DNA of 64,000 bases from Treponema sp. (GTDB taxonomy: Bacteria > Spirochaetota > Spirochaetia > Treponematales > Treponemataceae), in the NCBI GenBank assembly GCA_017934745.1, contig JAGBIY010000030.1, positions 2,244 to 66,243 of the forward strand, written 5' to 3'. The notes under the pieces were generated by a model, which was given only the letters and a program-made list of their open reading frames with translations, was not told where the DNA came from and did no database searches. Both the position numbers and the translations under genes were made by a program. Shown piece by piece: positions 56,168 through 60,943 of the stretch; position 1 is the stretch's first letter, and each line of letters starts with the position of its first letter.

Positions 56168-56397
56168 AAAGAAGAATTCGCCTTGGAAATCACATTTTCG
56201 GGCAATAGGGTTTACAGTTTCCGCGAAGCAAAGACGCACTACCTTGCTTGCCTTTCATAAGACCTGCCTTGCACAGCGACCACTAGGGTGCTACTGCGCG
56301 GTTATTTACGGTTGCTTTCTTTCGACCGCCTAAGCGGTCTCTTTAAAGCAACCGTTTTTTTTGCTTAGTTAGAACTGGAACGCACAACACGGAAACC
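56168..56397 (-). repeat. Conserved 3' module of FGE gene 1 (copy 2 at 59595..59809)
   Basis: 72-bp block 56326..56397 matches 59739..59809 except for one T; further conserved blocks extend to 56168. Confidence 0.9.
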
Positions 56398-56505
56398 AAG
56401 GAAGTCGAAGCGGCGGTACGGGCTGCCGCAGCTCCGGAGAGACACGGCGCAGTCGCCCGCACCGCCGCTCCAGGAACCGCCGCGCCCGACGCGGACAGAG
56501 CCGGA
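56365..56505 (-). other. Candidate DGR variable repeat VR1
   Basis: Against VR2, 15 of 17 non-synonymous codon pairs keep the same third base (14 NNC, 1 NNT) between invariant codons. Confidence 0.75.
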
Positions 56506-57591
56506 AGCGGCACCGGCGGCGGCAGTGGAATCTGAAATTGTTCCAGACCAGTCCCAGCACAATTCCCATACGTTTCCGCTCATGTCGTAAATGCCCAGGG
56601 CATTTGCACTATCTGTGCCAGTAACTTTATCTGTTTTTACTTCGTGTGTTCCGTAATCTGGGTCACTACTTCCTTTGTTATAGGAATTTTCTCTATACCA
56701 TGCAACATCACCTATAGTATCGCTTCCGCTGTAAGTTGTGGTAGAATTGCCGGCTTCCCTTGCTATGTATTCCCATTCTGCTTCTGTTGGCAGGCGGTAG
56801 CCGTTGGCAGAGGTGTTCATTATTATTCCGCCGTCTTCGTCACTTTCGCCCTTATAGTCCCATGCAGAACTTGTGATTGAAGGCCCGCAGTATTTTGTTT
56901 CTGCATCTCCTACAATACCGCTCCATTTTGCAGGGTCTGTTTCACCTCCCAGTGAATATACCGGGGTCAATCCTTCGTCAATAGAACGCAGGTTACAGTA
57001 GACCACAGCATCATACCAGTTTACATAATAGGCAGGGTAATTGTCGCCAAGTCCGCGGGTATCATCAGGACTTTCTGAACCATACTTGCAGTATTTTTCG
57101 TATTCAGATTGGGTAACTTCGTGGTCGCTAACATACAGGTCATCTATGGTAAGGCTCCTTCCGCTTACAAACACCTTTGATGAAGGGGTCCAGCTTTCAT
57201 CACCTTTTATTGTGGTGCCGGTAACTTTTACAAAGTCCTTAACAGTTAACCACTTTACCTTAAGCGTAACATCTTCTTCAATTGCCGCGGCAAAATCAAA
57301 GGCCGAATCGCCATTGTACCAGCCGTTAAATGAATAGCCTGTCTTTGTTGGGTTTGTTGGCTTTGTGGCGGTCTTACCACTTTCCACTGTTTGGCTTGCG
57401 ACTTCGCTTCCGCCGTCGCTGTCGAAGGTCACAGTGTAAGTCGCTACAGCTACGTTTTCTGAACTTTCAGTGGTTACAGCTGTGGTCCCTGAATTTCCTT
57501 CGGAATCACTGCTTCCTGATGAGCAGGAAACAAAGCTCGCAGTCAGTGCCGCGCACAAAGTAAGCGCGAAAGCCCCAAAGAATCTTCACAT
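56365..57591 (-). CDS. FGE-sulfatase (C-type lectin fold) lipoprotein with InlB B-repeat; candidate DGR target; in-frame TGA at codon 2
   Basis: Lipobox SFVSC, YTVTFDSDGGS...KTGYSFNGWY repeat, DHEVTQ, YRLPTEAEWEY, YDMSGNVWE, RGGSW, GFRVVR. SD-led ATG at 57591 is followed by TGA; the remaining frame is intact. Confidence 0.85.
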
Positions 57592-57622
57592 TTTTTCTTC
57601 TCCTGTTTATTTATCCAAACGC

Positions 57623-57673
57623 AAAAAGGCACCGCACCCACGCAAAAATGTTCTTGCATGGGCCGGTGCCCTT
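57623..57673 (-). terminator. Terminator-like hairpin in the leader of FGE gene 1
   Basis: GGCACCGGCCCATGCAA...TTGCGTGGGTGCGGTGCC plus TTTTT, ending ~35 nt before the ATG. Confidence 0.6.
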
Positions 57674-57801
57674 CTGTTTCTGTGCTGAACTGAACTGAGA
57701 TAGCGATTCGTCATGAGACTGTCAATAGTTTTTCCGAAATTTCCCCGCATTTTTTTCGCCCGCTCCGCAGTTAAGATTGCTTTCATTAAAAACAATATAA
57801 C

Positions 57802-57850
57802 AAACGCAAGCGGTTTTGCAACAGGGGAATCTGGAAGCTAGGCAATTCTC
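57802..57850. repeat. 49-bp repeat upstream of FGE gene 1 (copy at 61293..61341)
   Basis: 47/49 identical; on the minus strand this copy gives TTGCAA-N16-TATATT. Confidence 0.85.
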
Positions 57851-57879
57851 GCGCATTTGGCTGCTGGGAACCGTGCCAC

Positions 57880-59337: not shown

Positions 59338-59406
59338 AAAAACTCCGCGTTAGCGGTTGCACAGGATGTGCAAAATCGCAGTTTTTGACAACGGCAAAAA
59401 CTGCTC

Positions 59407-59440
59407 TGATAAAAAATTACACGGATGTAATTTTTTATCA
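59407..59440. repeat. Perfect 15-bp inverted repeat upstream of the AlbA_2 gene
   Basis: TGATAAAAAATTACA-CGGA-TGTAATTTTTTATCA. Confidence 0.85.
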
Positions 59441-59456
59441 CTCCTTCAAAACACCA

Positions 59457-59521
59457 TTTTACGAAAATATTAGCACATTTTACGAAAATATACAGTTTTA
59501 CGAAAATAAATTACGAAAATA
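59457..59521. promoter_or_regulatory. Four direct repeats of (TT)TTACGAAAATA, candidate operator array
   Basis: Copies at 59457, 59478, 59496 (13 bp) and 59511 (11 bp). Confidence 0.6.
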
Positions 59522-59594
59522 TTTATATGAAAAACGCTAAACATTTGCCCCTACCGCTCTGCTACTCCTTAACCTAAAAAAGGCGAACTCTTTT

Positions 59595-59809
59595 AAAGAA
59601 GAATTCGCCTTGGAAATCAGATTTTCGGGCAATAGTGGTTACAGTTTCCGCGAAGCAAAGACGCACTACCGTGTCTGTCTTTCCTAAGCCCTGCTCTCCA
59701 CAGCGACCCCTAGGGTGCTACTGCACGGATTCGCTCTTCCGCCTAAGCGGTCTCTTTAAAGCAACCGTTTTTTTGCTTAGTTAGAACTGGAACGCACAAC
59801 ACGGAAACC
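59595..59809 (-). repeat. Conserved 3' module of FGE gene 2
   Basis: Repeat of 56168..56397; here it ends in a complete terminator hairpin (AAGGCGAA...TTCGCCTT plus T run). Confidence 0.9.
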
Positions 59810-59917
59810 GCAGCTGATGCTGCGGATGTACGGGAAGATGCTGAGCCGGTAGGACACGGCACAGGAGGACGCACTGTCGCACCAAGAGCCACCGCGAGCG
59901 ACGCGGCGCGAGCCGGA
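59777..59917 (-). other. Candidate DGR variable repeat VR2
   Basis: Colinear with VR1 over 47 codons with no indels; NNC variable codons. Confidence 0.75.
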
Positions 59918-60943
59918 AGACGCACCAGCCGCCGGCGTGCTCACCGTGATAGTATCGTTCCAGTCCCAGCACCATTCCCATACGTTTCCGCTCATGTCGT
60001 AGGGGCCGTAGCCGTTCGCGGCCTTGGTCTTCACATCCCTTGAGCCTGTATCGTTTGTGTTGTCTGTATACCATGCCACTTCTCCTACAGTGGCGCTTCC
60101 GGCGTAGGTGTAGTTTTGTCCGCCCCGGGCGAGCCATTCCCATTCGGCCTCTGTCGGCAGGCGGTAGCCGTTGGCAGTAAAGTCGCAGGTAGCGGCGTTC
60201 CAGTCATCGTTGCTATTAGTCGGAATGTTTGAATATGCAAGGCTCTTCCAGTCCGTTATTCCGCTGACGGTATAGGCAGGAGTAAGGCCTTCTTTTATTG
60301 AAAGCTTGTTGCAGTAGGCGATTGCCGCATACCAGTTCACATAGTTCACAGGATTGTTCAGTGCGTTGTCTCCCGTAAGCTCGTTTCCGGCCTTGTCATA
60401 GGCAGCTGCCGTGCTCGGGTCTTCTCCCATGAGCGTCTTGAACTCGCCCCTTGTCACCTCGTGGTCGCATACATACAAATCAGAAATTGTAAGGCTCCTT
60501 TCGCTTACAAAAACGTTTGATGTTGGTGTCCAGGTCTCGTCTCCAGTTATTGTCATTCCCGAAACCTTCACAAAGCCTTCGGGAATTGCAGTTGTTACCG
60601 TAAGCGTGTAGCTTGCCGTCTTTGTGGCGTAGGTGTATGTGTCACTGTCTGCTACGGTTGCCGTGATGGTGGTCTCGCCCGCTCCCACGATGGTCACTTC
60701 GCCAGTCGTTGCGTTTACTGTGGCTACAGTTTCTTTGCTTGAGGCGTAGGTGACCGTGCCGTCGCCCGTCTTTGTGAGTTCATTTGTGAAAACCCCGTTG
60801 GCTGTCGTCTTGCTTACGGTCGTGGTGGCGTAGCTTATGCTTCCGGCCGTCTTCGAATCGCTGTCAGAATCCGACCCGCACGAGACGAATGCGAGCGCAA
60901 GCAGCGCGCCCACCAACGGGAAGAGTTTTTTGAGTTTCTGCAT
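59777..60943 (-). CDS. FGE-sulfatase (C-type lectin fold) lipoprotein with Ig-like (Big_2) domain; candidate DGR target
   Basis: Lipobox AFVSC, VTYASSKETVATVNATTGEVTIVGAGETTITAT, CDHEVT, YRLPTEAEWEW, YDMSGNVWEW, RGGSW, GFRVVRSSSN; GGAGG RBS. Confidence 0.92.
   Translation of the reverse strand: MQKLKKLFPLVGALLALAFVSCGSDSDSDSKTAGSISYATTTVSKTTANGVFTNELTKTGDGTVTYASSKETVATVNATTGEVTIVGAGETTITATVADSDTYTYATKTASYTLTVTTAIPEGFVKVSGMTITGDETWTPTSNVFVSERSLTISDLYVCDHEVTRGEFKTLMGEDPSTAAAYDKAGNELTGDNALNNPVNYVNWYAAIAYCNKLSIKEGLTPAYTVSGITDWKSLAYSNIPTNSNDDWNAATCDFTANGYRLPTEAEWEWLARGGQNYTYAGSATVGEVAWYTDNTNDTGSRDVKTKAANGYGPYDMSGNVWEWCWDWNDTITVSTPAAGASSGSRRVARGGSWCDSASSCAVSYRLSIFPYIRSISCGFRVVRSSSN

Follow-up and report, generated by a model that had tools for sequence, protein, structure and literature searches.

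The analysed stretch of DNA (the window) comprises 64,000 nt of a draft genome of a Treponema sp. (3.58 Mb, 73 contigs, 95.9% complete), corresponding to C40:2244-66243. It carries two lipoprotein genes, designated A and B, whose 3′ ends were investigated as variable repeats (VRs) of a diversity-generating retroelement (DGR). Contigs of the same genome (G000) are labelled Cxx, the congener genomes G001 and G002, and external contigs L0xx. Genes A and B lie on either side of a Schlafen/AlbA_2-HATPase_c_4 gene, and both are downstream of the enolase gene (eno). The two genes, and their VRs with the initiation of mutagenic homing (IMH) sequence, are located as follows.

56365..57558, minus strand: gene A, a lipoprotein with a Flg_new repeat and an FGE-sulfatase (C-type-lectin, CLec, fold) domain, homologous to TvpA; longest open frame from the TTG at 57558.
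59777..60943, minus strand: gene B, a lipoprotein with Big_2 and FGE-sulfatase domains, a canonical signal peptide and a lipobox.
56371..56516, minus strand: VR of gene A with IMH (...GGTTTCCGTGTTGTGCGTTCCAGTTCT), of the same template repeat (TR) subtype as copies on contigs C68 and L023.
59783..59928, minus strand: VR of gene B with IMH, of a different TR subtype (GGT GGC TCT ... TGT GCC ... TGC GGT).

The FGE-sulfatase domain is C-terminal in both proteins (Pfam, 3.5e-32 for A and 3.9e-35 for B). TvpA, the DGR variable protein of Treponema denticola (2Y3C), was the top solved-structure match of A (E = 3e-26), in an alignment that extends through the VR tail, and the Pfam matches and this alignment place both VRs inside the C-type-lectin/FGE-fold ligand-binding domain. 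The last 47 codons of the two genes, stop included, align codon by codon without gaps. The 17 non-synonymous codon pairs comprise 14 NNC/NNC, one NNT/NNT (GGT/AGT) and two others (GGG/GCT and CTT/TGC); six further pairs differ synonymously (five C/T and one T/G), and the final 11 codons (33 nt, stop included) are identical. The codon alignment thus reproduces the counts of non-synonymous pairs and the identical 33 nt given in the first-pass annotation of this DNA, and the TR-homologous stretch proved slightly longer in both genes than the span given there. When the columns were classed by real TRs from metagenome contigs, A and B mismatched at 25/30 columns with A in every TR versus 11/98 columns with A in none (Fisher p = 2e-13); because of this split, the pattern of differences is not due to chance.

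Real templates were sought by an exact-pattern scan of metagenome contigs for the 3′ end of the VR, in which the variable positions were left free as N. Five contigs matched, three of which (L016, L018 and L020) held two matches about 625 nt apart. In each of these pairs the first copy ends an FGE-domain gene, and is a VR, while the second is non-coding and reads AAC, AAT or AAA where VRs vary, and is a TR. The layout of these cassettes in related Treponema is target, small open reading frame (ORF), TR, HRDC accessory and reverse transcriptase (RT). L018 has the small ORF between VR and TR and, downstream, genes for an HRDC protein of 173 aa and for an RT of 340 aa that is intact and contains the motifs IGNLTSQ and YMDD; Pfam identified the cassette proteins as RVT_1 (7.9e-22) and HRDC (3.3e-6). 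Mismatches between VR and TR within the cassettes are almost confined to TR adenines (in L016, 19/36 A sites versus 1/110 elsewhere), and the lone non-A mismatch in L016 is the base at which IMH differs from its TR counterpart, IMH*. The template that had been predicted from genes A and B is 84-89/96 nt (88-93%) identical to the real TRs beside HRDC and RT genes; what the first-pass annotation had deduced from the sequence was accurate in this respect too.

A genus-wide search with a TR pattern (201 genomes) gave matches in only two genomes, which were the source of TR variants reading TAC or TAT. In a species-representative genome collection the VR 3′ pattern was found in six contigs of metagenome-assembled genomes (MAGs), four of them labelled Treponema or Spirochaetaceae/Spirochaetia, one Clostridia and none T. 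denticola; goat and human-gut spirochaete MAGs are among these matches. The 3′-half pattern matched genome contigs and the 5′-half VR pattern gave no match there, while the 3′ pattern gave none among the viral contigs of IMG/VR, with no sign there of a phage-borne cassette. Each of the congeners examined, G001 and G002, carries a complete DGR in which the VRs are of FGE type and differ from the TR in an adenine-specific way; in G002 the HRDC accessory and RT genes adjoin the TR. A PF00078 search gave an RT match in 7 of 24 sampled congeners.

Several of the external contigs carry altered cassettes. In L016 and L020 (oriented, ~4060-4270) the RT has an in-frame stop and an insert of ~200 nt (~65 codons) between RT motifs; since the VR still differs from the TR only at adenines, these may be recently disabled cores. 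L016 runs on into a carbamoyl-phosphate-synthase-like ORF where L020 continues the RT, and may be an assembly chimera. A shortened TR copy, with 24 nt missing, follows the VR of L017 (JAEEGL012594263.1, ~3050-3140), with no RT in the following 2.3 kb, and this may be another degenerating cassette. L021, L022 and L025 hold 5′-truncated TR-like copies with common upstream sequence (...AAAACTTGCGCGGTGGCTCTTGG). The copy is AAC-rich in L021; in L022 and L025 many AAC codons have become TAC or TTC, as though the truncated repeat had itself been mutagenised.

The VRs of the genome, which include copies on C68 and C59 (the latter designated C59a) described below, were then compared with TRs from the cassettes of related species, so that each of the following counts refers to a heterologous template.

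VR A versus the L016 TR: mismatches at 29/35 A sites and 6/101 other sites (p = 5e-18).
VR C59a versus the L016 TR: mismatches at 22/35 A sites and 2/101 other sites.
VR C68 versus the L016 TR: mismatches at 21/35 A sites and 8/101 other sites.
VR B versus the L018 TR: mismatches at 23/33 A sites and 9/103 other sites (p = 2e-11).

Over all four tests p ranged from 1.5e-9 to 5.5e-18. Pooled over the four VRs, TR adenines were replaced by G 51 times, by T 37 times and by C 11 times, and were unchanged 45 times. Transversions are thus about as common as transitions at these sites, whereas ordinary drift is expected to favour transitions. The VRs of A, B, C68, L016-L019 and L023 read TTCCAGTTCT (IMH) after GTTGTGCG, and all four TRs read TTCCAGCTCT (IMH*). 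The comparisons support the identification of the A and B tails as DGR variable repeats on FGE/CLec-fold lipoproteins, as the first-pass annotation had proposed.

The same data bear on whether a DGR was ever involved, since paralogous FGE C-termini might instead have diverged by mutation and positive selection while gene conversion kept the scaffold codons. The genome does contain ~17 FGE-domain genes, many of whose proteins end in similar GxxRVxRGGSW...GFRVVR tails, and the sharing of leader and 3′ modules shows the family to be clearly mosaic. Against this, variation is confined to positions 1 and 2 of codons that are AAC, AAT or AAA in real TRs, third positions being kept; transversions are nearly as frequent as transitions; scaffold columns agree at 97-99% between genes of which the rest cannot be aligned or shows only 40% identity; and the predicted template exists beside an RT in relatives. 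Divergence without a DGR is thus extremely improbable, and already effectively refuted.

A blastn search of the genome with the VRs of A and B and with the predicted template, as the first-pass annotation had suggested, recovered only further VRs and no TR. Additional copies lie at C68:97055-97206, in the tail of a 952-aa protein, and at C59:3167-3302 (C59a), with weaker relatives at C59:1147-1286 and C24:31260-31397; no copy is adenine-rich. The genome therefore has at least four VRs (A, B, C68 and C59a), from two or three TR subtypes. At TR non-A columns A is 97% identical to C68 and 99% identical to the VR of another species, L023; as proteins, the FGE domains of A and C68 share only 40% identity. 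The boundaries of the VR, from A versus C68, are sharp, and in C68 a Leu replaces the invariant Trp of GGSW. This high identity at non-adenine columns despite divergent domains points therefore to a common template overwriting unrelated gene tails rather than to divergence of paralogues. FGE fragments at the starts of C57 (101-448) and C34 (110-442) were also considered and rejected, being unrelated paralogues rather than VR or TR copies; both contigs open within FGE-domain genes that are nearly identical, and another FGE gene comes next in each, so that these are assembly breaks at paralogous repeats.

The subtypes can be told apart at non-adenine positions. A and C68 have in common CCGGTGCCGCTTCC at the 5′ end and a CGC codon, and match L023. 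C59a shares CCGGCTCGGC.TCT and CGT with the L016 TR, to which it is 99% identical at non-adenine columns. B reads GGT GGC TCT ... TGT GCC, as do the TRs of L018 and L028, and its TGC before GGTTTCCG fits the TRs that read TAC or TAT there (L028 and L027) through an A-to-G change. The synonymous differences between A and B thus reflect different TR subtypes, not a failure of the adenine rule. Of the two explanations earlier offered for the five C/T differences, drift or more than one template, the second stands, B fitting the L018/L028 TR type; drift may nevertheless be included in the 9-10 non-adenine mismatches that B so far retains to any TR.

Downstream of each gene a hairpin, or what is left of one, was identified.

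56308..56355, minus strand: nested hairpin 13 nt past the stop of gene A, a candidate DGR target-recognition hairpin.
59739..59768, minus strand: hairpin remnant after gene B, with the 5′ arm and a 4-bp inner stem kept and the 3′ outer arm deleted.

The hairpin after A has an 11-bp outer stem, a 6-bp GACCGC/GCGGTC inner stem and a 4-nt TTAG loop (-18.8 kcal/mol, z = -5.1). Hairpins of this type are ~96-98% conserved after the VRs of C68, L016, L019 and L023, the gene bodies of which are 70-89% identical. Retrohoming in the phage BPP-1 depends on a hairpin located 4-34 bp past the VR, and the phage loop consensus is GRNA (PMC3240598). Gene A has such a downstream hairpin and gene B does not, the remnant after B folding with -8.9 kcal/mol (z = -1.4).

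Alignment with the leaders of C59a and of a second lipoprotein gene on the same contig, C59b, locates the ancestral start of gene A.

57586..57591, minus strand: ATG (57591..57589) followed by TGA (57588..57586).

C59a and C59b read ATG AGA where A reads ATG TGA, and the TGA at codon 2 would be a nonsense change that removes the signal-peptide n-region. The lipoprotein signal is normal in B and is present in A only if this TGA is disregarded. Gene A is thus predicted to be a pseudogene, to be translated from the TTG at 57558 with a stub signal peptide, or to carry an error of the MAG consensus at the TGA base.

The first-pass annotation had proposed that both genes are diversified in trans by a distant DGR, and the genome was searched for its components. 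PF00078 gave no RT match in this genome, though the same search detects the DGR RTs of congeners. By tblastn the RTs of G002, L018 and L016/L020 found no match in the genome, the HRDC proteins of G002, L016 and L018 none with E < 0.04, and the small ORFs of the cassettes none. An AAY-density scan of the genome returned only AT-rich DNA and no GC-rich AAC tract. The assembly, contig ends included, contains no part of an RT, an HRDC protein, a cassette small ORF, a TR or a TR-spacer; the RT, the cognate TR and the accessory protein (of Avd or HRDC type) that make up a complete DGR are all absent from it. The GNAT-like gene that lies between TR and RT in G002 was tried as a marker of a hidden core, and its four homologues (two on C24, one each on C1 and C61) have no RT beside them.

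One site in this genome can be compared directly with a cassette. The FGE domain of C59a is, among those of the genome, the closest to a relative's cis target, being 89% identical to L016 over 788 nt. The identity ends exactly at GTTGTGCG (junction GTTGTGCG|CAATGCGG), after which contiguous unrelated DNA follows; an FRG-like ORF and, next to it, a further FGE lipoprotein gene stand in the place that the hairpin, small ORF, TR, HRDC gene and RT occupy in L016. The cassette site beside C59a is therefore assembled and empty, and the proposed diversification in trans from elsewhere in this genome was not upheld.

We consider it probable that A, B, C68 and C59a, which represent two or three TR subtypes, are targets left behind by DGR cores since lost, and infer that the absence of the core is a true loss. 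Loss is favoured because no cassette piece occurs in the assembly, because the cassette site of C59a is empty, because the targets appear from their sequences to be decaying (TGA at codon 2 of A, the truncated hairpin of B, the break at the IMH of C59a, and Leu for Trp in C68), and because T. denticola offers a precedent, 8 of 17 isolates keeping 2-6 VR-bearing FGE lipoprotein genes without RT or TR (PMC4891356).

Several points weigh the other way. The genome is a 95.9%-complete draft in 73 contigs, in which a 2.5-kb core could be unassembled or unbinned; the TGA of A could be an assembly or consensus error in the MAG; every TR comparison was made to other species, the cognate TR of this lineage never having been seen; and A and C68 are almost without non-adenine drift (97-99% to each other and to L023), with IMH and hairpin intact. 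Such low drift and intact signals imply that the loss was recent, or that the core is still present. A and C68 could then be live targets, still diversified in trans by a core that assembly or binning has missed and that might lie, for instance, beside some other target or within a mobile element. Incompleteness of the assembly leaves room for this, as do the perfect IMH and hairpin of A and C68, with ~1-3% change at non-adenine columns; one core serving remote targets is moreover the rule in T. denticola (PMC4891356), and the DGR RT is patchy in the genus, as the 7/24 congeners with a match indicate. On the other side stand the lack of any cassette fragment, even at contig ends, the empty site beside C59a, the two or three TR subtypes among the VRs, which would require several missing cores, the nonsense codon in A, and the hairpins lacking in B (3′ arm deleted) and C59a. 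A core that still operates is possible, then, though less so than its loss; the more specific version, that the VRs of A and C68 are still rewritten by a core outside the chromosome assembly, such as a mobile or strain-variable element shared among gut Treponema, is rather unlikely.

The history of the locus would be as follows. In complete cassettes of this family, the RT and HRDC accessory would copy the AAC-rich TR RNA, misreading adenines, and the cDNA would replace the part of the VR that runs from a variable 5′ point to the IMH, assisted by the hairpin just past the stop codon, with the result that the ligand-binding face of an FGE/CLec-fold surface lipoprotein is rewritten. By analogy, this retrohoming mechanism would be that established for BPP-1. 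The 3′ ends of A and B were written by such mutagenic retrohoming of a Treponema DGR family; with the core (TR, HRDC accessory and RT) gone from this genome, as is probable, the VRs of A, B, C68 and C59a would be leftovers, frozen and starting to decay.

Searches for relatives of the locus itself were largely negative. Exact-protein look-ups of the neighbouring Schlafen-like gene and enolase found no same-species contig on record for a strain-level comparison of VRs, and no orthologue of gene A turned up in a DNA search that covered 15 sampled congeners plus 10 more genomes from the same order. By enolase the closest named relative is L029 (uncultured Treponema sp. SRR11784294_bin.43; 93% nt identity), which is without the A and B genes. 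L029 is not syntenic with the surroundings of eno (window 61660-63051) on either side, its flanks matching C16 and C62 of this genome. The eno neighbourhood is rich in repetitive extragenic palindromic (REP)-like repeats and marks a point of rearrangement; the island of A, the Schlafen gene and B is peculiar to this genome.

The lipoprotein genes share further modules outside the VR. A near-identical ribosome binding site, leader and signal-peptide module is common to A (window 57560-57640, minus strand), C59a and C59b (C59:2300-2345 and 4400-4470), whose bodies differ, and the N-terminal region of B is similar to that of a gene on C18. Beyond the hairpin lies a further shared element.

56168..56307, minus strand: non-coding 3′ module of ~140 nt after gene A, shared with B, C59b and C18.

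Its other copies, of 82-96% identity, are at 59590..59738 (B), C59:1010-1148 (C59b) and C18:50323-50400; the C18 gene carries the module yet has no FGE domain. Within this genome the module is specific to the lipoprotein family, and it is not part of the cassettes of relatives. From these sequences the family appears modular, mosaic and recombining. An Rfam scan of 55900-61700 identified no family above threshold for the 3′ module. At 59357-59443 on the plus strand, a short way upstream of the Schlafen/AlbA_2 gene, there is a sub-threshold match to TD-2 RNA (RF03162; 39.9 bits, E = 0.0016; gathering score 48.7).

The system was compared with that of T. denticola, comprising TvpA/TDE2269 and six remote targets (Le Coq & Ghosh 2011; Nimkulrat et al. 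2016, PMC4891356). As there, the targets are FGE-sulfatase/CLec-fold lipoproteins, with TvpA as the top match in the Protein Data Bank (PDB; 3e-26), a C-terminal VR of ~130-145 nt with AAC-derived codons and several dispersed targets per genome; the complete cassettes have an HRDC-type accessory; and there are genomes with targets and no RT or TR, as well as mixed TR types in one genome, T. denticola isolate SP32 keeping the leftover of a second TR type (PMC4891356). Unlike T. denticola, the organisms belong to an uncultured gut or rumen Treponema group, the nearest named records being goat, ruminant and human-gut MAGs, and the TR sequence, the N-terminal modules (Flg_new and Big_2) and the conserved nested TTAG-loop hairpin are different. 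With the BPP-1 DGR (Mtd; Guo et al. 2011, PMC3240598) the system shares adenine-specific TR-to-VR differences, a VR IMH that differs from the TR IMH*, and a GC-rich hairpin with a 4-nt loop from a few to 34 bp downstream of the VR. It differs in having an HRDC-type accessory rather than Avd and a TTAG rather than a GRNA loop, in a hairpin nested in a second 11-bp stem, in targets that are chromosomal lipoproteins rather than a phage tail fibre, and, in this genome, in having no core.

The orphan-target state is already published for T. denticola (PMC4891356), and the same phenomenon is found here in a new uncultured gut or rumen lineage. These findings leave the current understanding of DGRs unchanged; they extend the Treponema system of DGRs and FGE lipoproteins, so far that of the oral pathogen T. 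denticola, to uncultured members of the genus in gut and rumen, and supply real TR-HRDC-RT cassettes (L016, L018, L020 and L027) for a VR family present in this genome only as orphans. The strongly conserved nested hairpin, whose loop departs from the consensus, is a candidate for the element that HRDC-type DGRs recognise, and one that can be tested. Should a core after all reside outside the assembly, one organism would carry targets of two or three TR subtypes, and whichever core it happened to house would serve them; the core would be exchangeable while the target set forms a fixed landing pad. Taken together, the data describe a second lineage in which cores come and go while targets persist. 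The orphan VRs may preserve past diversification in frozen form, and the loss of the core could be timed by the way they decay, through a nonsense codon, a lost hairpin or a break at the IMH.

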